From Candidatus Krumholzibacteriia bacterium (GTDB lineage Bacteria; Krumholzibacteriota; Krumholzibacteriia; WVZY01): a stretch of DNA of 39,845 nt. Where the stretch lies: contig JAZGDW010000195.1 of NCBI GenBank assembly GCA_036478295.1, forward strand, positions 1-39,845. The letters are read 5' to 3'. The translations under genes and the position numbers were made by a program. The notes below the pieces were generated by a model. It saw nothing but the letters and a program-made list of their open reading frames with translations. It did no database searches and was not told the origin of the DNA. Shown piece by piece: positions 156 through 11,557 of this stretch; position 1 is the first letter of the stretch; each line of letters starts with the position of its first letter.

Positions 156-1472
156 CTACTCGTAGTACTCGTTGCCGAGATGCGTGATGAGCTCTTCTCC
201 CATCAGGTGGCGTAGCTGGTTCTTGAGCTTCATGAGCTGAATGAACAGGTCGTGTTCCGGGTACAGGCCCGGTGCGGTGATGGGGCTCTTGAAGAAGAAC
301 GACATCCATTCCTGGATCCCCGAGAGCTGCGCCCGCTGGGCGAAATCCATGAACAGCGCGAGATCGAGACAGATCGGGGCGGCGAGGATGCTGTCCCGGC
401 AGAGAAAGTTGATCTTGATCTGCATGGGATAGCCCAGCCAGCCGAAGATGTCGATGTTATCCCACCCTTCCTTGTTATCCCCGCGCGGCGGATAGTAGTT
501 GATCCGTACCTTGTGGTAGAAGTTGCCGTAGAGCTCGGGATAGAGCTTGGGCTGCAGCACGGTGTCTAGCACGGAGAGCTTGCTGACCTCCTTGGTCTTG
601 AACGACTCGGGATCGTCCAGCACCTCGCCGTCCCGGTTGCCGAGAATGTTGGTGGAAAACCAGCCGTTTAGACCGAGCATGCGGGCTTTGAGCCCCGGTG
701 CGATAATCGTCTTCATGAGGGTCTGGCCGGTCTTGAAGTCCTTACCACAGATCGGCGCCCGCATCTCTCGTGCGAGTTCGTCGAGTGCGGGGATGTCGGT
801 GGTGAGATTGGGCGCGCCGTTCGCGTAGGGAATACCCATCGAGAGGGCAGCATAGGCGTACACCATGCTCGGCGGGATGGCCGGGTCGTTGTTGCGGAGT
901 CCTTCCTCGAAGGCCTTTATGCTCTGGTGCACGGGTTGCGGCTCGATGTAGACCTCGGTGCTGCCGCACCAGATCATGACGAGGCGGTCGACGCCCTTCT
1001 CGGTCTTGAAACGCTCGATGTCCTTCTTCAGCGCCTCCGCTTTGTCCCACCAAGTGCCTTCCTTCTTTACGTTGGGGCCGTCGAGCTTTTTTACGTAGCG
1101 GCGATCGAACACGGCGCTCATGGGGTGGATGCCCTCGAGGTAGCCCTTGACGGAATCGAGCAGTTCCTTCTCCAGGACCCCCGCCTTGCGTGCGGCCTCG
1201 TAGCAGTTGTCTTCGTAGATATCCCAGCCGCCGAACTCGATGTCCTTGAGGTCTGCCAGCGGCAAAAAGTCTTTGATCATGGGCGAACGCTCGTCGGTGC
1301 GCTTTCCCAGACGGATGGTGCCCATCTGGGTCAACGAACCGATGGGGCGGCCGATGCCGCGGCGCACGGCCTCCACACCGGCGATAAACGTGGTGGCGAC
1401 CGCTCCCATACCGGGGAGCAGGACGCCGAGCTTGCCTGCGGGTTGCTTGATATCGTTAACGGGGTTTGCCAT
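156..1472 (-). CDS. ino1: myo-inositol-1-phosphate (inositol-3-phosphate) synthase
   Basis: GMGAVATT NAD-binding loop, FGGWD, WCGSTE, ANGAP, GKDFKTGQT, STNILGNRDG, YYPPRGDNKEGWD, CRDSILAAP motifs; SD AAGGAG upstream. Confidence 0.96.
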   Translation of the reverse strand: MANPVNDIKQPAGKLGVLLPGMGAVATTFIAGVEAVRRGIGRPIGSLTQMGTIRLGKRTDERSPMIKDFLPLADLKDIEFGGWDIYEDNCYEAARKAGVLEKELLDSVKGYLEGIHPMSAVFDRRYVKKLDGPNVKKEGTWWDKAEALKKDIERFKTEKGVDRLVMIWCGSTEVYIEPQPVHQSIKAFEEGLRNNDPAIPPSMVYAYAALSMGIPYANGAPNLTTDIPALDELAREMRAPICGKDFKTGQTLMKTIIAPGLKARMLGLNGWFSTNILGNRDGEVLDDPESFKTKEVSKLSVLDTVLQPKLYPELYGNFYHKVRINYYPPRGDNKEGWDNIDIFGWLGYPMQIKINFLCRDSILAAPICLDLALFMDFAQRAQLSGIQEWMSFFFKSPITAPGLYPEHDLFIQLMKLKNQLRHLMGEELITHLGNEYYE

Positions 1473-1527
1473 TTTCTTGCTCCTTACCTGAGAGAAATTT
1501 GCTCCGTCGTATGCAAAATCTGAGGGC

Positions 1528-1556
1528 TTGACGTAACATACCGCATTCGCTACTAT
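1528..1556 (+). promoter_or_regulatory. sigma70-type promoter for lysR-suhB
   Basis: TTGACG-17 nt-TACTAT. Confidence 0.6.
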
Positions 1557-1563
1557 TACTGAA

Positions 1564-1600
1564 ATTTATAATACTTATCTGTAAAATAAGTTATCCTAAT
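1564..1600. promoter_or_regulatory. Two putative LysR T-N11-A boxes
   Basis: ATTTATAATACTTAT (1564-1578) and ATAAGTTATCCTAAT (1586-1600), 22 bp apart, in the AT-rich spacer between divergent ino1 and lysR. Confidence 0.55.
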
Positions 1601-1609
1601 GGACAAACC

Positions 1610-2530
1610 ATGGAGATCCGGCAACTCCGATACTTCCTTTCCACGGTACGGCTGGGCAGCCTGAAGGCGGCGGCCCGCGAGCACTTCGTGACCCAGCCGG
1701 CGGTGAGTATCCAGCTGAAGAAGCTCGAGGCGGAGCTGGGCGAGAAGCTCTACACCCGCCGCGGGCGCCGCGTCGTCGCCACCCAGGCGGGTGACATGGT
1801 CGCCACGCAGGGAGAGGCGATCCTGGGGCGTGTGGATTCGCTGAAGGATTCGATCACACAGTTGACACACGGCCACGCCGGCTACCTCCGGATCGGGAAC
1901 ATCGACGCGGCAAGTATCTACGTCCTGCCCGGCGTGTTTCACGCGTTCCGGCGCAGGTATCCCGGCGTGGATGTGCAGGTGACGGTGGCCGACTCGGATA
2001 CGCTGGTGGCCGCGCTCGAGTCGGGGGCCATCGAGCTGGCCATTGTCACGCTGCCGCTGGGCGGAGAGGGTCTCGAGGTGGTGCCGTTCTACAGGGACCG
2101 CATGCTGCTGGTGGCGAGCCCCCGCCACGAACTGGCCACGAGCCGGCTCGCGCGCCGGCGCCCGCTGCAGGCCGCCTCCGAGGCGGGGCTCATCACCTAT
2201 CCTGCACAGTCCGTGACCCGGCGGCTGCTCGAGAAGGTCTTCATCGATAACGGACTCACCCTCCGCGCTGCCATGGAGATGTCGAGCCCGGAAGCGATCA
2301 AGCGGCTGACCGAAGCGGGAATCGGCGCGAGCATTCTGCCGCGCAAGGTGGTGGTGGACGAGTTGAAGCGCGGCACGCTCAAGAGCATCGCCACCGGCGG
2401 CATCCGTTTCGAGCGCATGCTCGGCGTGGTGCACCGGGGCGTCGAAAAACTTTCCCAACCGGCGTCTATATTTCTTACCATGCTAATGAAGAAACACAAG
2501 ATCAGGACAAATCGAAAGGCGGGGACATGA
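1610..2530 (+). CDS. LysR-family transcriptional regulator
   Basis: N-terminal HTH MEIRQLRYF...AAREHFVTQPAVSIQLKKLEAELGEKL; LysR substrate-binding domain; 306 aa. Confidence 0.95.
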   Translation: MEIRQLRYFLSTVRLGSLKAAAREHFVTQPAVSIQLKKLEAELGEKLYTRRGRRVVATQAGDMVATQGEAILGRVDSLKDSITQLTHGHAGYLRIGNIDAASIYVLPGVFHAFRRRYPGVDVQVTVADSDTLVAALESGAIELAIVTLPLGGEGLEVVPFYRDRMLLVASPRHELATSRLARRRPLQAASEAGLITYPAQSVTRRLLEKVFIDNGLTLRAAMEMSSPEAIKRLTEAGIGASILPRKVVVDELKRGTLKSIATGGIRFERMLGVVHRGVEKLSQPASIFLTMLMKKHKIRTNRKAGT

Positions 2531-3357
2531 AGTACCAAACCGAACTGAAAACGGCGCAAGAGGCGGTTCGCCGCGCGGGCGAGATCATCCGCAAATCCTA
2601 CGCGGCGCTGCGTTCGGACGACGTGTCCGAAAAAAGGGCCAACGACATGGTGACCGTGGTGGATATTGAGTCGCAGCGGAGTACGGTGACCCTGCTACGC
2701 GAGCGGTTCAGGACAGATTTTATTGTTGCGGAAGAAAGTTTCGAAGCGAGCGTCAACCAGGGCATCGCTTCGGATGCCCCGCGCCGTTGGTACATCGATC
2801 CCCTGGACGGAACCACCAACTACATACACGCCTACCCGATGTTCGCAGCGAGTATCGCGCTGCAAGAAGACGGGGAAATGGTGATGGGGGTCACCTACGA
2901 TCCGATGCGTGACGAACTCTTTCACGCGGTGCGGGGCGAAGGCGCGTACATGAACGACGCGCGGATCCGGGTCAGCACGATTTCGAGCAAGGTCCGGACG
3001 CTGCTGGCCACGGGTTTCCCGTTTCGCGCGAGGGAATATCTCGACGAGTACCTGAAGACGTTTCGTTTTTTCTTCAATAACTCGCGTGGCATCCGGCGGG
3101 GGGGCTCGGCCACGCTCGACCTGGCGTACGTGGCCATCGGCCGCGTGGACGCGTTCTGGGAAATGACGCTGAGCCCGTGGGATATGGCCGCCGGCGTGAT
3201 TCTGATCGAGGAGGCCGGCGGCACAGTGACGGATTTCTTCGGTGAGAAGAACTCGCTCGCGAACGGCCACATCGTCGCGACCAATGGCGCGTTCCACGAC
3301 TGGATGTGCGAGCACATCCAGTCAGTGTTTCCCAAAGGGACCGATTTGAGCCTATGA
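2527..3357 (+). CDS. suhB: Inositol monophosphatase (SuhB/ImpA family)
   Basis: WYIDPLDGTTNYIH, RRGGSATLDLAYVAIGR, PWDMAAG motifs; ATGA overlap with lysR stop. Confidence 0.93.
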   Translation: MKYQTELKTAQEAVRRAGEIIRKSYAALRSDDVSEKRANDMVTVVDIESQRSTVTLLRERFRTDFIVAEESFEASVNQGIASDAPRRWYIDPLDGTTNYIHAYPMFAASIALQEDGEMVMGVTYDPMRDELFHAVRGEGAYMNDARIRVSTISSKVRTLLATGFPFRAREYLDEYLKTFRFFFNNSRGIRRGGSATLDLAYVAIGRVDAFWEMTLSPWDMAAGVILIEEAGGTVTDFFGEKNSLANGHIVATNGAFHDWMCEHIQSVFPKGTDLSL

Positions 3358-4779: not shown

Positions 4780-6573
4780 TTGCATCCGAAACCGAAAGGC
4801 CCTGCCGCATCACCAGACCGCGTCGCTGCGGTGCTGGTCACAGCGTTCGTGTGCCTGCTCGCCGTGTTTCCCATACGCAACAACGACATCTGGTGGCACC
4901 TGGCCGTGGGCAGGGAGCTCGTTCAGAGCGGTCGGTTCATCGTCACAGACCCGTTCACCTTCACGCTCGCCGGCACCCCGTGGGTGCCCCACGCGTGGCT
5001 GTCGGGTCTCTTGTTCTACGCGATCCACGCGTGGTCGGCCGAGCTGGGACTGCTGGCGCTGCGCGCCGCGATCGTGGTGACCATCTTCGTGCTGTTGTTA
5101 CGGCTCGTGCGTCGCCTCGGCGTATCGCTCGTCCTGGCAGCGCCCGTGGTCCTGGTAGCCGCCTTGAACGTGCAGGCCCGTTTTATCCTCCGCCCCCATC
5201 TCTTCGAGTACCTGCTGATCCTGCTGATGCTCGGGGCTCTGCTGTCCGCCGGCGAACGCCGGGGTGCGCGTTTCTTCCTCGTGCCGGTCGTGCTCCAACT
5301 GTTGTGGGTGAACCTGCACCCGAGTTTCTACCTGGGTGTCGGTATGGCGGTGTTGTTCTTTGCAGGGGAATGGCTCTCGTCGCGCCTGTCGGCGAAGCTG
5401 CCGGTGCGCGGATTTCTGGCGGGGGCCGCCATCGATTGGAGACGGGTGGGGCTTCTCATCGTACTCCTCGCTGCGGCGTCCTTCGTCAACCCGAGCCCGG
5501 TGGAGTTTGTCACTCAACCGCTGAACGCGGAGCACCGGCAGCTACTGACCGCGTATACGCTGGAGTGGCTTTCGCCCTTCGATGCGGCGATGACGCGGGC
5601 TGCCTTTCATCCCTACTACGAGCTATTGCTGGCCTTCGCGGCGGCGGCATTCCTCTTGTCTTGGCGGCGCCTGCGGCTCTCGTCGCTGCTCATCGTGGGT
5701 CTGTTTGCCGGCCTCTCGCTCACCGCACACCGCTTTCGCGTGGAGTTCGCCCTGGTGGCGGTACCGCTGGCCCTGGACCAGCTCCGCATCTCACCGCTTA
5801 CCGAGCGAATCCGCAAACGCCTCGCGCGCAAGGGGCGGATGAGGTTCGCGCCGCATGTGGCGTGCGTGCTGGCAGCGCTGGCACTGATGGTAACGGCCCG
5901 CGACCGTGTCATCATAGAGGGCGCGGTGAGCGGGCGCTTTCCGCAGGCGGCCTTCGACTTCGTTCGTGACAACGATATTGCCCGGCGCCCGTTTCACGGA
6001 ATCGCCCACGGATCGTACCTCGTGTGGGAACTCTATCCCGAGCGCAAGGCGTTCATCGACGGCCGCAATATCGACGCGGCGCTCTACCGGGAATTCCTGG
6101 CCTGCCAGACGACAACGGCGGCGTTCAATACGACCATCAACAAGTACGACCTGGACGGTTTCATCCTGCCGTCTCCCGAGTTGAGCGACGGGGGCATGCG
6201 CCGGACCCACGACTTTCTCATTCAATCGAAGGGATGGTCGCTCGTCTACATGGACCGCAACGCATACGTCTATGTGAAACGAAACAAGGTCCCGCAAGAG
6301 TGGCTCGAGCGGCACCGCTACGGCCTCTACCATCCCGTAACCTTTGCACGCCTGCGTTTTGCCGCCGAGCACATCGACGCGCTGCGCGGCGAAATCGAGC
6401 GGGCGTCGGCAACCGACCCGCGTTACGCGAGGCCGCTCCTGGACCTGGCGAGCTTACACGCCTCACTCGGTGAGCGGGACCGGGCGCTCGACGCGATCGA
6501 GCGGGTGCTGGCTATCGATGCAGCAAACGCGGAAGCCCGAGCAATGAAGCGTACGATCGCCAGCCGCAGCTAG
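4780..6573 (+). CDS. Polytopic membrane protein (GT-C glycosyltransferase-like) with C-terminal TPR
   Basis: DIWWHLAVG...DPFTF...W..HAWL after TM1, RPHLF, LWVNLH, EWLSP, FIDGR motifs; about 11-12 TM helices; TPR-like tail. Start moved from 4603 to TTG 4780 (GAGG upstream). Confidence 0.7.
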   Translation: MHPKPKGPAASPDRVAAVLVTAFVCLLAVFPIRNNDIWWHLAVGRELVQSGRFIVTDPFTFTLAGTPWVPHAWLSGLLFYAIHAWSAELGLLALRAAIVVTIFVLLLRLVRRLGVSLVLAAPVVLVAALNVQARFILRPHLFEYLLILLMLGALLSAGERRGARFFLVPVVLQLLWVNLHPSFYLGVGMAVLFFAGEWLSSRLSAKLPVRGFLAGAAIDWRRVGLLIVLLAAASFVNPSPVEFVTQPLNAEHRQLLTAYTLEWLSPFDAAMTRAAFHPYYELLLAFAAAAFLLSWRRLRLSSLLIVGLFAGLSLTAHRFRVEFALVAVPLALDQLRISPLTERIRKRLARKGRMRFAPHVACVLAALALMVTARDRVIIEGAVSGRFPQAAFDFVRDNDIARRPFHGIAHGSYLVWELYPERKAFIDGRNIDAALYREFLACQTTTAAFNTTINKYDLDGFILPSPELSDGGMRRTHDFLIQSKGWSLVYMDRNAYVYVKRNKVPQEWLERHRYGLYHPVTFARLRFAAEHIDALRGEIERASATDPRYARPLLDLASLHASLGERDRALDAIERVLAIDAANAEARAMKRTIASRS

Positions 6574-6729
6574 CGTCGCAAGAGCTCTCGCGCGGGTGGC
6601 GCCGACGGGGCCCCCGCACCGCGCTCAGCGGTAGCGAGCACGGGCGGGGTAATCGGTGACAGGACCCGCGTGGCTTAGTGAAAGGAACGGCTGAAGAGCG
6701 GTAGGGGCACTGGCGCGAGGGGTGGGTTT

Positions 6730-6778
6730 GAAAAGACAAGAAGCAGCACATCACTCGACTTGCGCCTCGATGTGCTGC
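6730..6778 (-). terminator. Intrinsic terminator-like hairpin
   Basis: Perfect 10-bp stem GCAGCACATC/GATGTGCTGC (6743-6778) followed on the minus strand by TTCTTGTCTTTTC. Confidence 0.65.
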
Positions 6779-6980
6779 CCTCATCCGGTGGGGACTCCAA
6801 CTTGTTTCAGGTCCTAATCGCGTTTCCCCTTCCTGTGGTCTCGCGATATGGTGATCAATTCGTGTGCGATGTTGAAATATGAAAGAGCCGGTGCCGCCCC
6901 GTCCCAAATAAGTCCCCCCTCTGCGAGGGACTCCCGAAAGCGGTTGCCGCATGTCCACCCAGCAGCGCCGGCTCCCTTCA
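6730..6980 (-). ncRNA. Candidate LysR-regulated small RNA (about 105 nt or about 250 nt)
   Basis: Promoter immediately upstream, long closing stem 6877-6983 with two inner hairpins, terminal hairpin plus U-rich tract, no credible ORF. Confidence 0.55.
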
Positions 6981-6985
6981 TATGT

Positions 6986-7014
6986 ACCATAGCCTTTAGT
7001 TTGGTATAAGTAAA
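6986..7014 (-). promoter_or_regulatory. sigma70-type promoter facing the gene-free region
   Basis: Minus strand TTTACT-17 nt-TATGGT; predicted start near 6979, at the foot of the long stem. Confidence 0.55.
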
Positions 7015-7035
7015 ATACAAAAAATAAAATTGAAG

Positions 7036-7052
7036 TATATAGTTTCTATATA
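7036..7052. promoter_or_regulatory. LysR-type recognition palindrome
   Basis: TATATAG-TTT-CTATATA, a perfect inverted repeat containing T-N11-A, upstream of the lysR gene. Confidence 0.7.
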
Positions 7053-7127
7053 GTATATTCTTCGTGGCGCTCAGTGTATTGTACGCGCGGCCGGCCGGCC
7101 AGTTTCCAACAAAGGGGCTTAAAGACC

Positions 7128-8045
7128 TTGCTGCCGCTGAATTTCAACCATCTATACTATTTCTACGTGGTCGCCAGACGGGGGAGCTTCTCCCAGGCGG
7201 CCGAGGAGCTTCGGGTCTCGCAGTCGGCCATCAGCGTCCAGATCAAGCAATTCGAAGCCTCACTTGGACATACCCTTTTCAACCGCGTCAAGACCGGCGT
7301 GGAGCTCACCGAGTCCGGCGAGGTGGTCTTTCAATACGCCGAGAAGATCTTCAGCGACGTCGACAAGGTGCGGAGCGACCTCGAAGCCATGGAGCACGAC
7401 CTGACGGGCACCATTTCCATCGGCACCGTCAACAGCATCGGCATCTACTTTCTGCCCGAAGTCCTGAAAGAATTCAACGATGAGTATCCGCAAGTCAAAG
7501 TGGGAATTATTTTTAAGTCACCGGCCGAGCTGGTGGCCGGTGTGCGCGGCGGCAAGACCGATTTCGCCATCCTCACCTCCAACCGCCGGTACGCGGGCCT
7601 GACCAGCGTGCCCATCCAGAAGAACAAGATGTTCCTCGTGGCGCCGCCGGATCATCCGCTAGCCGCGCAGGAGCAGATCGCGCTCGCCGATCTGGAGAAG
7701 TACCCGTTTCTGGGCTTCGAGGAGGGGATGGAGACACGGGCGATGATGGACGCTCTCTTCCGGCGCATGTCCCTGAGCATCGAGTACGTGGTGGAGTCCT
7801 CTAACGTGGCCACGATCAAGCATATGGCCATGGCCGGCCTGGGGCTCGCCATTCTGCCGGAAACAGCCGTGGGTCCCGAGATCCGGCAGGGACTCCTCGT
7901 GCGGCCGCCGGTGCCCAGCCTGTACATGGTGCAGGAAATCACCGCCTACCACAAGACGAGCCGGCCCCTGACGCCCACCAAGAGCGAGTTTCTCGCCGGC
8001 ATGCAGCGGCGCCGCACCGGCGGCGCCCGGCGCGCGAAACAATAG
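7128..8045 (+). CDS. LysR-family transcriptional regulator
   Basis: LNFNHLYYFYVVARRGSFSQAAEELRVSQSAISVQIKQFE HTH; start placed at TTG 7128 (AAGGGG upstream) rather than 7074. Confidence 0.93.
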   Translation: MLPLNFNHLYYFYVVARRGSFSQAAEELRVSQSAISVQIKQFEASLGHTLFNRVKTGVELTESGEVVFQYAEKIFSDVDKVRSDLEAMEHDLTGTISIGTVNSIGIYFLPEVLKEFNDEYPQVKVGIIFKSPAELVAGVRGGKTDFAILTSNRRYAGLTSVPIQKNKMFLVAPPDHPLAAQEQIALADLEKYPFLGFEEGMETRAMMDALFRRMSLSIEYVVESSNVATIKHMAMAGLGLAILPETAVGPEIRQGLLVRPPVPSLYMVQEITAYHKTSRPLTPTKSEFLAGMQRRRTGGARRAKQ

Positions 8046-8079: not shown

Positions 8080-9144
8080 ATGAAAATTCTGCACACTGCC
8101 GATATCCATCTGAGAACCGTCGGCGATGAACGCTGGTGCGCCCTCCTGAGTATTCTGGAACTTGCCAAGGCACACCGCGTCTCGTTAGTCGTTATCAGCG
8201 GCGATCTTTTCGACCGCCAGCTCGACGCCCACAAATTGAAGCCCCCGCTCCGTGACCTGATGCGGTCTCTCGTATTCCCGGTGGTCATTCTGCCGGGCAA
8301 CCACGATGTACTGGCTCTGCGCGACGGAGACGATTACGGAGAGAACGTGACCGTGCTGGCAAGCCACGAGCAACATCTGGACATCGGGGACGTGCGGTTG
8401 TTCGGGCTGCCATTCGAGAAGATTGTGGGGGAAAAAGTGCTGCAGCGGCTGTTGTCGATCAAGAACCGCCGGCGCGATGGCGCGTGCAATATTTTGCTCT
8501 ACCACGGGGAACTGCTCGACCTGAGTTATTCGGGCAAGAGTTTCGGGGACGAGGAGCAGGGCGGCTATATGCCGGTGCGTCTGCCGTTCTTCGACAATCT
8601 CGGTATCGACTACGTCCTCGCCGGGCATTTCCACTCGAACTTCGAGTCGGTGCGCTACAGCGACGGTTACTTCGTGTACCCCGGTTCGCCGGTGTCGGTT
8701 ACGCGGAAGGAGACGGGCATTCGCAAGGTCAATCTTTTCGAAGTGGGCAAGCCCCCACAGGGGGAAATCGTTAGCAGTTTTCATTACCGCGACCTCACCG
8801 TCTATTTGAACCCCTTCTCCATGCAGGATCCGCTGGAGACCATCGAGCGCGCGCTGCGAGACTCCCACCCGGATGCCCGGGTGCAACTGAGCGTGACCGG
8901 ATTCGTGGACCTGCAAATGGCGGGCAGGACGGAAAAGGAATTTACCGCCGCCGTGCGCGAGCTCTTGACGCCCCGTGTCGAACTGGTGTCCGCGCAGTGG
9001 CGGGACATCAGCGAGGTCCGGCGCAACCCCCTCTTTATCCGCTTCCTCGAAAAACTGGAGGAAAGCGGCCAGACCGAGGGGGCCAAAGCGGAACTGCGCC
9101 GGTTGGCCATGGAGAGCATGATGGAGGCTTCGCTTGCGAATTAG
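8080..9144 (+). CDS. Mre11/SbcD (YhaO-like) metallophosphoesterase nuclease
   Basis: HTADIH, SGDLFD, PGNHD, YHG, AGHFH, YPGSP motifs. Confidence 0.9.
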   Translation: MKILHTADIHLRTVGDERWCALLSILELAKAHRVSLVVISGDLFDRQLDAHKLKPPLRDLMRSLVFPVVILPGNHDVLALRDGDDYGENVTVLASHEQHLDIGDVRLFGLPFEKIVGEKVLQRLLSIKNRRRDGACNILLYHGELLDLSYSGKSFGDEEQGGYMPVRLPFFDNLGIDYVLAGHFHSNFESVRYSDGYFVYPGSPVSVTRKETGIRKVNLFEVGKPPQGEIVSSFHYRDLTVYLNPFSMQDPLETIERALRDSHPDARVQLSVTGFVDLQMAGRTEKEFTAAVRELLTPRVELVSAQWRDISEVRRNPLFIRFLEKLEESGQTEGAKAELRRLAMESMMEASLAN

Positions 9145-11557
9145 GGCCATTCGGATCGACCGCTACGGACCGCTGGTGGATTTCAGCGCGGGGGATCTCG
9201 CCAACTTTACGCTGGTCTATGGCGCCAACGAGCAGGGCAAGACGCTGCTGCTCGACGCCATCCTCAAGCTGCTTTTCAAGAAGGACCTCAAGCGCCAGTC
9301 GAAACATTTCAGCAACATCGCGCGCGTCTCCGACCCTCCGGAGGGCTTCCTGGTGCTCGAGCACGACGGGCGCGAGATCAACCTGACGCGCAAGGACTCG
9401 TTGCCGGACCACCTGCCCGTTACGTGGGTCGATTTTCGGAATATCTTCGTCGTGAGGGACAGCGATCTCAGCATGGTGGACGAGAAGGACTACTACGTCG
9501 CCGTGTCGGAAAAGCTCTCCGGGCTGCGCACGTCGGAGATCGAGGACATCAAGCAGGTCTTGCAGACGAAAGGCCGGCTGACCAACCCCGGTTCGGATGC
9601 CGATTTGTCCGACAGCGCCGGAGCGGAGCATGCACTGCGCCGGGTAAAGGCGGCGCTGGAGCTCGCCCGGGAGATCGACAGGAAACTGCCCCTCTTCCAG
9701 AACAGCGGCTTCGATAAGCTGGAGAGAAGACTGGTCGAGGTCAAGGAACGGCTGGCGACCAAGGAGCGTGAACTGAAGATCTTTCGCGAGGCGGAAGTGA
9801 GGGGCACGTACCAGAAGGCACAGGAAGACTTGATCGAGCTCAAGGCGGTTCTGGAATCGCTCGGCGAAATCAGCGAGGTCAACGAGAAGGACCTGGAGAA
9901 ATGGCGCGAACTCGCGCTCGACTGCAAGCGTGACGAAGACGTCATCCGCTCGGTGGAAGAGCAGCGGCGAAACAAAGAGAAGAGGCTCCGGACGGTAAGC
10001 GACGCGTACGCCGAGGCCCGTGCCAAAGTGGAATCGGTCAAGAAGAGCCGGGAAGGGTTCACGGGGGAACTGGAACCCAAACTGAATGAGTGGCAGGTTC
10101 TCAAGCGAACGCGCATCGAGAAACAAACCCACGGCAAGTTCTGGCGCTGGGCCACGCGTCTGTCGGCACTGCTGCTCGTTATCTCGGTCGCTGGAAGTTT
10201 CTTTGTACAGGCGCCCGTATTGTTCGCTTGCCTGGGCCTGTTTCTTCTGCTGACCGTACTGTCGGCCATACAGGTGTACCGGTTGCAGAGGATAGAGGCT
10301 AGGTTCAAAGCGGCCTTCGAAGACCTGCGCGATTCGGCAAGGAGGTTCGGTGTCGAGATCGACTCGCCCGACGATGTCAACCTCGGTACGGTACTCGAGA
10401 AACCCGGTGGCCGGGAACTGGAGCTCGAGCAGCGAAAGCTGCGGGACGCCGATATCGGCAAGAACGTGTTGACCGGCGACCTGTTCTCGCTGGCGCAGCA
10501 GACGCGCATTCACAAGGAAAACCTGAACAAGGTCGAGGACGCGCTCAGCGCTCTCAAAATGGAGTCGGATATCGACACCCTGGAAGACTATCGCAGGGCC
10601 CTGAAAACCAAACGCGACAAAGAAACCCGAGTGAAGTCGCTGCGCTCGATGTTGTCGCGTGTCCTCGGGGGCAAGAAGGACGAAGAACAAATGCTACAAT
10701 TCTGGCAGGGGGAGATAGAGCGGCACCTGTCGGCGGTGCCGGGCACGGGTGGCGCGCAGGAGTACAATCCCGACCTGGTGACGGCGTTCGAGACCGAGAT
10801 CCAGACGCTCAAGAAACAAGCGGTTGAGATAGACGATCAGCTCAACATCGGCCGCAAGGAGCTGCGGGACCTGGAACTGAAAATCACGCACGCCGAAGTG
10901 ATCGAGAGTGACCAAGTGGTCTGCCGCACCATCAGCGACCTCAACGCGTTGAAGCGGGACATGGAGGCTTTTGTCGAGCGCGTGGAGAAGCAAAAAGAAG
11001 ACGCGCAGCAAGTGCTGAGAATCTTCGAAGCGATCGAATCGGAGAACAAATCCAAAGTGGTAGAGCTTTTCGGTGCCGACCGGGCGGTGTCCAGGTATTT
11101 CGCGGACATGACGGGCGGTCGTTACCGGGAAGTCATGTTCGACCCGGTGCACAGCCGTATCAGCGCGCGCGACGCTCGCGGCCAGGTAATAGCCGCCGAG
11201 AAACTTTCCGGTGGCGCCGCCGACCAGCTCTACCTGGCGATTCGACTTTCGGTGGCGCAGGGTGTCATGCAGGGAGCGCGCGGTTTCTTCCTTCTCGACG
11301 ACGCCTTTGTCAAGGCCGACATCGATCGGCTTCACAACCAGCTGGCGCTGCTCAAGACGATTACCGACGACGGCTGGCAGGTTATCTATTTCTCCGCGAA
11401 GAAGGAAGTCCTCGACGCGCTGCAGCCGAATATTGCCACCAACGACGTGCGCGTAATCCACATGCGAAACGTCCTGCTCGAACCCGAGGAACCCCGCCAA
11501 CAGCGGCCGGCCTCGTCGATCGTCGAGCTCTTTCCTGGAGACAAGGGGAACTATTGA
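9134..11557 (+). CDS. SMC/Rad50-like ATPase (YhaN-like) with central transmembrane hairpin
   Basis: Walker A GANEQGKT, long coiled coils, signature LSGGAADQLYLAIRL, Walker B FLLDD; overlaps the nuclease gene by 11 bp. Confidence 0.88.
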   Translation: MRIRAIRIDRYGPLVDFSAGDLANFTLVYGANEQGKTLLLDAILKLLFKKDLKRQSKHFSNIARVSDPPEGFLVLEHDGREINLTRKDSLPDHLPVTWVDFRNIFVVRDSDLSMVDEKDYYVAVSEKLSGLRTSEIEDIKQVLQTKGRLTNPGSDADLSDSAGAEHALRRVKAALELAREIDRKLPLFQNSGFDKLERRLVEVKERLATKERELKIFREAEVRGTYQKAQEDLIELKAVLESLGEISEVNEKDLEKWRELALDCKRDEDVIRSVEEQRRNKEKRLRTVSDAYAEARAKVESVKKSREGFTGELEPKLNEWQVLKRTRIEKQTHGKFWRWATRLSALLLVISVAGSFFVQAPVLFACLGLFLLLTVLSAIQVYRLQRIEARFKAAFEDLRDSARRFGVEIDSPDDVNLGTVLEKPGGRELELEQRKLRDADIGKNVLTGDLFSLAQQTRIHKENLNKVEDALSALKMESDIDTLEDYRRALKTKRDKETRVKSLRSMLSRVLGGKKDEEQMLQFWQGEIERHLSAVPGTGGAQEYNPDLVTAFETEIQTLKKQAVEIDDQLNIGRKELRDLELKITHAEVIESDQVVCRTISDLNALKRDMEAFVERVEKQKEDAQQVLRIFEAIESENKSKVVELFGADRAVSRYFADMTGGRYREVMFDPVHSRISARDARGQVIAAEKLSGGAADQLYLAIRLSVAQGVMQGARGFFLLDDAFVKADIDRLHNQLALLKTITDDGWQVIYFSAKKEVLDALQPNIATNDVRVIHMRNVLLEPEEPRQQRPASSIVELFPGDKGNY

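Follow-up and report, generated by a model that had tools for sequence, protein, structure and literature searches.

The window analyzed here, a 39,845-nucleotide stretch of DNA from Candidatus Krumholzibacteriia bacterium (GCA_036478295.1, contig JAZGDW010000195.1), carries a gene for a LysR-type regulator and, divergent from it on the minus strand, a predicted structured RNA preceded by a predicted promoter and several T-N11-A boxes (Table 1). A first-pass annotation, made by eye, had read this gap as a LysR-small RNA module, a reading that the comparisons with related genomes described below support. It had also seen no credible coding sequence in the gap, and this holds; the AUG at 6952 opens a frame of 146 codons, but the length of that frame is not conserved.

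Table 1. Features of the lysR-RNA locus (positions in the window; box centers relative to the predicted RNA start at 6979).
Feature	Position	Strand	Remarks
lysR gene	7128..8045	+	Pfam HTH_1 and LysR_substrate; likely TTG start at 7128 (own gene call)
T-N11-A box, center -65, predicted high-affinity regulatory site	7037..7051	-	30/30 loci; 27/28 metagenome loci
T-N11-A box, center -52	7024..7038	-	30/30 loci; 27/28 metagenome loci
T-N11-A box, center -43, predicted activation sub-site	7015..7029	-	30/30 loci; 28/28 metagenome loci
T-N11-A box, center -34, overlapping the -35 hexamer	7006..7020	-	31/31 loci; 28/28 metagenome loci
Predicted sigma-70 promoter	6986..7014	-	-35 TTTACT (7014-7009), 17-nt spacer, -10 TATGGT (6991-6986)
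Predicted small RNA, about 250 nt here	6730..6979	-	Ends predicted; start-to-seed 142-187 nt in relatives
5' domain with long closing stem P1	6881..6979	-	P1 arms 6979-6962 and 6897-6881; variable loop region inside
Motif A	6940..6959	-	Purine-rich run, AUG at 6952, small hairpin GCGG-CAA-CCGC (6950-6940)
Genus-specific inner hairpin	6911..6932	-	In G000 and G001 only; different inserts in other relatives
Motif B, purine-rich, CAGGAAGGGGAAACGCGA here	6818..6835	-	CAGGA in 51/54, CGCGA in 34/54
Motif D, invariant C-rich, GUCCCCACCGG, candidate seed	6785..6795	-	Beside the terminator
Predicted intrinsic terminator hairpin and U-rich tail	6730..6783	-	10-bp core 6778-6769 with 6752-6743

Orthologues of the regulator scoring at least 303 bits are found in 32 of the 36 genomes of the order, with scores of at most 153 bits in 115 genomes of other orders, and by these scores the protein is a member of an order-restricted orthologue group. 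Its nearest named relatives (65-88% identity) come from Ca. Krumholzibacteriia and Ca. Latescibacterota. Among its best 25 NCBIfam matches no family lies above the cut-off, the top score being that of a selenium-associated LysR (176 against a cut-off of 250). A structure model (pLDDT 87) matches the folds of CcmR, OxyR, CysB, and others at 20-26% identity. Neither these fold matches nor the NCBIfam scores name a ligand, and a conserved cysteine is absent from the alignment of the orthologues. Beyond lysR in the window (8080-11557) lie genes for an SbcD-like phosphoesterase and then an SMC/AAA-type ATPase; the phosphoesterase also follows lysR in L054, L150, L151, and L153, and an RmuC gene is found downstream in L050 and L052. 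A second LysR gene of the window (1610-2530) is divergent from the gene for myo-inositol-1-phosphate synthase (156-1472) and runs into that for inositol monophosphatase (2527-3357), and the stretch 156-3357 is likely a compact LysR-controlled inositol synthesis unit.

Four T-N11-A boxes separate the lysR coding region from the predicted start of the RNA. The outermost coincides with a perfect palindrome noted in the first-pass annotation (TATATAG-TTT-CTATATA, 7036-7052), whose center at 7044 lies at -65 from 6979 as read from the sequence. Regulators of the LysR family bind a regulatory site near -65, with more sites near the promoter (PMC11495319), and the proposal of such a site at a divergent promoter agrees with the presence of the -65 box in every genome locus scored. 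The -65, -52, and -43 boxes were scored in 30 loci, one further locus having fallen outside the promoter rule of the script, and all four boxes occur together in 27 of 28 metagenome loci. At other offsets upstream of the -35 box the frequency of T-N11-A is at most 0.42, despite the AT-richness of the region; three offsets on the -35 box itself reach 0.68-0.81. Across much of the large genus the lysR start codon and the -65 box share bases, which fits self-repression, and the overlap also constrains those bases. An operator matrix scores 49 at the locus. Every other score in G000, and all those in 2.4 Mb of G015, stay below 8, the one exception being this locus read on its opposite strand. Because the matrix finds no second site in G000 or in these 2.4 Mb, the RNA looks like the dedicated target of this LysR, and is likely its only one.

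The promoter that had been proposed for the minus strand, TTTACT-17-TATGGT, stands at 7014-6986 as far as conservation is concerned, with 17-nt spacing and a TANNNT -10 element in 31 of 31 loci and a -35 element of the form TTTACN in 26 of them. It is not listed by a consensus scan, agreeing with 8 of 12 consensus positions and falling below the threshold, so that the promoter call rests on conservation. Stem P1 begins at, or a few bases from, the predicted +1 in the 31 loci. A promoter under the scan threshold would also be compatible with an element that is untranscribed and conserved for DNA-level features only. This reading is extremely improbable given the strand-asymmetric, G-U-tolerant stems, the spaced -35 and -10 elements, and the compensating terminator, all kept across two families. 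Three RNA runs from the same study gave no contig over the RNA, a result that is neutral as to transcription.

Folding of the minus strand from 6730 to 6985 yields -101.5 kcal/mol, an energy that none of 200 shuffles reaches (z = -3.71). The minus strand had been favored on the strength of G-U pairing, in accord with the fold of the 5' domain (-53.6 on the minus strand vs. -40.2 on the plus strand) and with one-sided G-C/G-U changes in relatives. The long stem said to rise from 6979 is likewise borne out, both of its arms being readable in the sequence and relatives showing compensatory changes: two-sided changes affect 9 of 13 P1 pairs, and 96.9% of cells are paired (38 of 52 sequences), against 25-47% for slid versions of the whole 5' structure. 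Both inner hairpins are present where they had been placed, but the second (6932-6911) is confined to G000 and G001. The first forms part of motif A, which retains GGCARCC in 52 of 54 distinct sequences and AUG or GUG in 50 of 54, and in which a tree-aware test finds no significant covariation.

The start codon in motif A bears on a reading in which the 5' domain is a translation-start module, with ribosomes on the AUG in the P1 loop reading M-R-Q-P and thereby opening P1 or soaking up 30S subunits, the peptide past the fourth codon being irrelevant. AUG or GUG followed by CGG-CAR-CCR occurs in 50 of 54 sequences, and the changes between CAA and CAG, CCG and CCA, and AUG and GUG preserve the reading. 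A GGA-rich run precedes the start codon in most second-family sequences, and in 14 of 16 first-family cases the distance from the AUG to the 3' arm of P1 is a multiple of three. The module is nevertheless improbable, as open reading frames range from 6 to more than 76 codons in all three frames, G003, G005, G008, and G010 have no start codon yet keep a small hairpin, and several first-family sequences lack a Shine-Dalgarno-like run. The frame lengths and phases, with the missing start codon in 4 of 54 sequences, also led to the rejection of a protein gene or dual-function small RNA.

At the 3' end, the 10-bp terminator hairpin assigned to 6743-6778 is present with a U-rich tail to 6730. Two-sided changes occur in 11 of 12 terminator pairs, and the U-tail is weak in one genus. 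An earlier 3' end, near 6875, had been suggested as well and is unsupported, as the U-rich run there is not conserved in relatives. A home-made tree-aware covariation test places 3 of 36 proposed pairs at E < 0.05 (one in P1, two in the terminator). Its all-against-all version finds no significant pair, including any long-range pair between the 5' and 3' domains, and ranks two of the proposed pairs at the top (E 0.35 and 0.55). Too little variation exists in the small CAR hairpin, and in a possible helix of motif B with the C-rich motif, for a covariation test.

Motif D is the most conserved part of the RNA, with CCCCACC(A/G)G in 54 of 54 sequences and GUCCCCACC in 53 of 54; a pattern containing motif D had served to select 21 of the 54, but not the 33 genome sequences. 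The predicted unpaired probability along CCCCACC runs from 0.30 to 0.90, the first two C's being mostly paired (0.30, 0.37). Motif B is able to pair with this candidate seed, although none of the seven pairs shows a two-sided change and one is broken by an A-C mismatch in 24 of 38 sequences. Additional C-rich loops occur in one family (CCUAGUCC in 33 of 54 sequences), and AGUCCC is repeated in part of one genus. A separate loop, CAUCAYCCAA, lies in the P1 loop of one subclade (L005, L006, L007, L003, L163, L165, and kin; 13 of 54 sequences); it is complementary to a G-rich site with a start codon and is a possible second, clade-specific seed.

Motif D also has counterparts in other RNAs of these genomes. 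The sequence CCCCACCA is the 3' end of tRNA-Val(CAC) in G000 and G015, and GUCCCCACC recurs in sense in 23 of the 29 FMN riboswitches of the order, where 11-12 nt of the P2 arm are identical to motif D. The FMN riboswitch (RF00050) is the best profile match among the housekeeping RNAs (4 bits; 0 of 150 shuffles). These likenesses would suit a processed or mimic RNA, either one whose motif B-seed helix forms an acceptor-like stem ending in A-C-C and cut by RNase P, or one whose motif descends from, or imitates, the P2 arm of the FMN riboswitch. Either form carries very little probability: the B-D helix has no two-sided change and its A-C mismatch recurs, ACC is followed by G in some first-family sequences, and where the small RNA retains G, 6 FMN copies carry U or A, so that it does not covary with the riboswitch. 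Covariance models yield no match in either direction (model R1 has none on the FMN riboswitch), and 30 of 36 order genomes have one complete FMN riboswitch of their own (G000:C5:15128-15250; L393-L421). A complement of the seed is found in 16S rRNA with one G-U pair, and 20 of 504 permutations (4%) equal it in 16S; when the 23S region is included, 56 of 504 do as well. A 13-mer common in sense to the RNA and the 16S rRNA of G015 was set aside after it showed no covariation in G002. None of the likenesses to the FMN riboswitch, the tRNA 3' end, and the 16S stretch covaries.

Whether the element acts in cis can be judged from the next gene. In the window and 4 of 12 annotated relatives this gene is convergent; in the other 8 it is co-oriented and has an FGE-sulfatase domain. 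The co-oriented arrangement, together with the terminator at the end of the element and its weak U-tail in one genus, would fit a leader or riboswitch of the FGE-sulfatase gene. Such a role is highly improbable, for the element is fully kept where the next gene is convergent, no Rfam riboswitch matches, and a second hairpin and a separate promoter-like element, identified by eye, precede the FGE gene in the large genus; riboswitches and cis leaders in general were rejected as unlikely on the convergent cases. In L139-L147 a second GC-rich hairpin (with a U-run in several) lies 30-200 bases past the small RNA terminator and is followed by conserved CCGACTCCATAA and TTTAC and then the FGE-sulfatase gene; the hairpin is likely a second terminator, and CCGACTCCATAA/TTTAC the promoter or operator of the FGE gene itself.

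The element is divergent from a lysR orthologue in all 31 genome loci with upstream DNA (34 lysR loci were inspected, the other 3 stopping at a contig edge), and the structural conservation looked for beside orthologous lysR genes is thus found, with compensatory changes in both P1 and the terminator. A covariance model of the 3' domain recovers one strong copy in 33 of 36 order genomes, which makes the RNA single-copy; two of these copies are in genomes whose lysR contigs are broken, and in the 3 genomes with no strong match the lysR orthologue is absent or cut by a contig end. Outside the order (114 genomes) this model has one weak match, to a gene end with a terminator. The 5'-domain model finds the element in 23 of 27 genomes of the order and in none of 123 others. 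As a single genus supplies 17 of the 36 order genomes, such tallies overstate how independent the observations are. The layout, the boxes, the spacing of the promoter, the stems, and the motif are all conserved, and the RNA and lysR are jointly distributed.

A motif scan of metagenomes gave 66 matches. In 28 of them, with scores of 71-87 bits, the promoter and a divergent lysR orthologue are both present. The remaining 38, with neither lysR nor promoter and at most 14.4 bits, were dropped as chance; three of them (L167, L179, L214) share a near-identical stretch that ends 41-58 bases from the contig end and is unrelated to the RNA. Viral contigs had no match to the 3'-domain pattern. Weak model matches occur in G060, G021, G022, G168, G033, and G007; the first four were inspected and rejected as gene ends with terminator hairpins. 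Eisenbacteria relatives of lysR (40-42% identity) have no RNA beside them and instead have a co-oriented oxidoreductase gene upstream. A genome-wide repeat had been named as an alternative identity; the RNA itself is not one, but a repeat is present in the gap outside it (6586-6676). This intergenic sequence of about 85-90 bases forms a long hairpin on both strands and is REP-like, with copies in genomes of both families and 33 profile matches in G000, of which 11 lie no more than 150 bases from where a contig ends.

Comparison with Rfam assigns the RNA to no family, there being nothing at gathering score in the window and chance matches only at E up to 10, both over 6400-7300 and in the loci of 8 relatives. 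The earlier failure to match it by eye to SRP, 6S, tmRNA, tRNA, or a riboswitch is in keeping with this result and with canonical copies elsewhere. A housekeeping role was rejected because tmRNA, 6S, SRP, and RNase P RNA sit at other places in the genome, and profiles of 6S, SRP, and plain or permuted RNase P RNA give no match to the element. Hfq and ProQ were each found in 0 of 5 genomes searched, and KhpA/B and RRM proteins, possible helpers, in 5 of 5. CsrA is found in 0 of the 36 order genomes, and a CsrA sponge was rejected on this count.

CsrB-type sponges carry their motifs repeated in hairpin loops. In another reading the LysR-controlled RNA would serve as a scaffold or decoy that binds protein, with motifs A, B, and D recognized by KhpA/B, an RRM protein, a cold-shock protein, or the like instead of pairing as seeds. 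Conservation of these motifs in sequence without covariation is consistent with such a role, as are the KhpA/B and RRM proteins of all 5 genomes and the lack of a complementary target in the screen of G000 and G015 described below. The role is rendered unlikely because CsrA, the usual sponge target, was not found in the 36 order genomes and because the hairpin loops do not carry the motifs in multiple copies, AGUCCC in part of one genus excepted. A more elaborate form, to which we assign a low probability, is a LysR-triggered two-domain decoy of the gene-expression machinery that, in response to a metabolic signal, would sequester 30S subunits or else a conserved RNA-binding protein rather than act as a pairing small RNA. 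In this form a locked stem of the 5' domain would hold the start codon and the fixed M-R-Q-P opening, and the 3' domain would present the invariant C-rich arm, which is complementary to a conserved stretch of 16S rRNA and tRNA-3'-end-like.

Pairing targets were sought among 1150 orthologue pairs between G000 and 75% of G015 (own gene calls). No pair shares a 7-, 8-, or 9-mer seed complement in the -60 to +30 region (0.6 expected from permuted 7-mers), an energy ranking with five RNA segments gives no excess of shared top ranks in the two genomes, and GGGGA is shared by 7 pairs (5.9 expected), which is chance level. The lone conserved non-coding GGUGGGG in G000 and G015 is the antisense of tRNA-Val. 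Candidates from single genomes (trmD-, meaB-, and livH-like by sequence reading) were not among the sites shared in the two-genome screen and were discarded, and a shared 9-mer complement inside a gene read as UDP-glucose dehydrogenase was taken as chance because it falls on a conserved V-G-T peptide. The screen, which covers two genomes with imperfect starts and no accessibility term, makes pairing less likely.

LysR-small RNA pairs are known from proteobacteria that use Hfq. The first-pass annotation had invoked GcvA/GcvB and OxyR/OxyS, and the likeness holds for gene layout only; Hfq and a target were not found. OxyR/OxyS is a divergent pair with several spaced half-sites. The LysR protein described here reaches 107 bits on the OxyR model (cut-off 329) and has no conserved cysteine, and the RNA has no Rfam match. 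GcvB is similar in length to the Krumholzibacteria RNA and has a G/U-rich seed, whereas the conserved motif here is C-rich and Hfq is found in 0 of 5 genomes. The GcvB gene is divergent from that of its activating LysR, with sites upstream of the promoter and a Rho-independent terminator (PMC1557403). The divergent LysR-RNA layout, upstream boxes, and intrinsic terminator recur here, the last judged by conservation, but the RNA matches no Rfam family, and the GcvA model, whose cut-off is 288 bits, gives the LysR protein 120. In Vibrio cholerae, QrrT activates the dedicated non-coding RNA QrrX from an adjacent LysR gene by promoter binding (PMC9732341). The adjacency of a LysR gene and a dedicated RNA is the same, activation by LysR being presumed for the Krumholzibacteria pair; QrrX, unlike the present RNA, is an Hfq-dependent sponge of known small RNAs, and here Hfq was not found and Rfam gives no match. 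The layout thus has precedent in the GcvA/GcvB and QrrT/QrrX kind, and the RNA belongs to neither family by Rfam or Hfq.

Similar in anatomy is the UCCC class of Firmicutes (RsaE/RoxS), whose members act without Hfq, combine a hairpin at the 5' end and a terminator with a conserved C-rich motif, and block ribosome-binding sites (PMC2790875). Shared features are the 5' stem, the C-rich motif beside the terminator, and the failure to find Hfq. Differences are the phylum, the lack of an Rfam match, the adjacent LysR in place of the known RsaE regulators, and Shine-Dalgarno pairing, which was not found in the 1150 pairs of the two genomes. Motif D and the C-rich loops resemble UCCC-class anatomy, and seed pairing is taken as the likeliest mechanism.

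That the element is an RNA gene under LysR control is thus highly probable, the four conserved boxes and the co-occurrence with lysR pointing to that regulator, and it is likely transcribed as a small RNA of 200-250 nt that LysR would activate. Tentatively, at somewhat less than an even chance, the RNA may act in trans and independently of Hfq, through base pairing between its invariant C-rich motif and other RNAs at G-rich sites. A LysR tetramer would occupy the -65 box and the -43/-34 boxes and would repress its own gene; binding of an effector would shift the tetramer, as in the sliding-dimer model, and switch on the RNA. The transcript would be protected by its 5' stem, motif B might partly mask the seed, and the partner would be an mRNA ribosome-binding site or another small RNA. 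As LysR seems to have no other target, the RNA probably carries its entire output.

To our knowledge, regulatory RNAs of uncultured candidate phyla have been little described. Among the matches listed, literature on the taxon and on LysR with a divergent small RNA contains no description of this RNA, no paper listed for the taxon with RNA terms carries the taxon name, and Latescibacter with structured RNA gives one unrelated paper. Two motif-discovery papers do not mention LysR in their main text, and supplementary motif lists could bear on novelty. The order-wide structured RNA gene and its dedicated LysR are apparently undescribed. The pair persists throughout an order whose genomes yielded no Hfq, ProQ, or CsrA (0 of 5, 0 of 5, and 0 of 36 genomes), and the covariance model, defined operator, and invariant motif offer a handle on small RNA action with KhpA/B, RRM proteins, or no chaperone. 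As a minor observation, a cold-shock-domain gene (G000:C279:25317-25529 and L313:13338-13565; orthologue-level matches in 32 of 36 genomes) has a likely UUG start and, in both copies, the ribosome-binding site GGGGGAY, a weak 6-7 bp partner of the seed.
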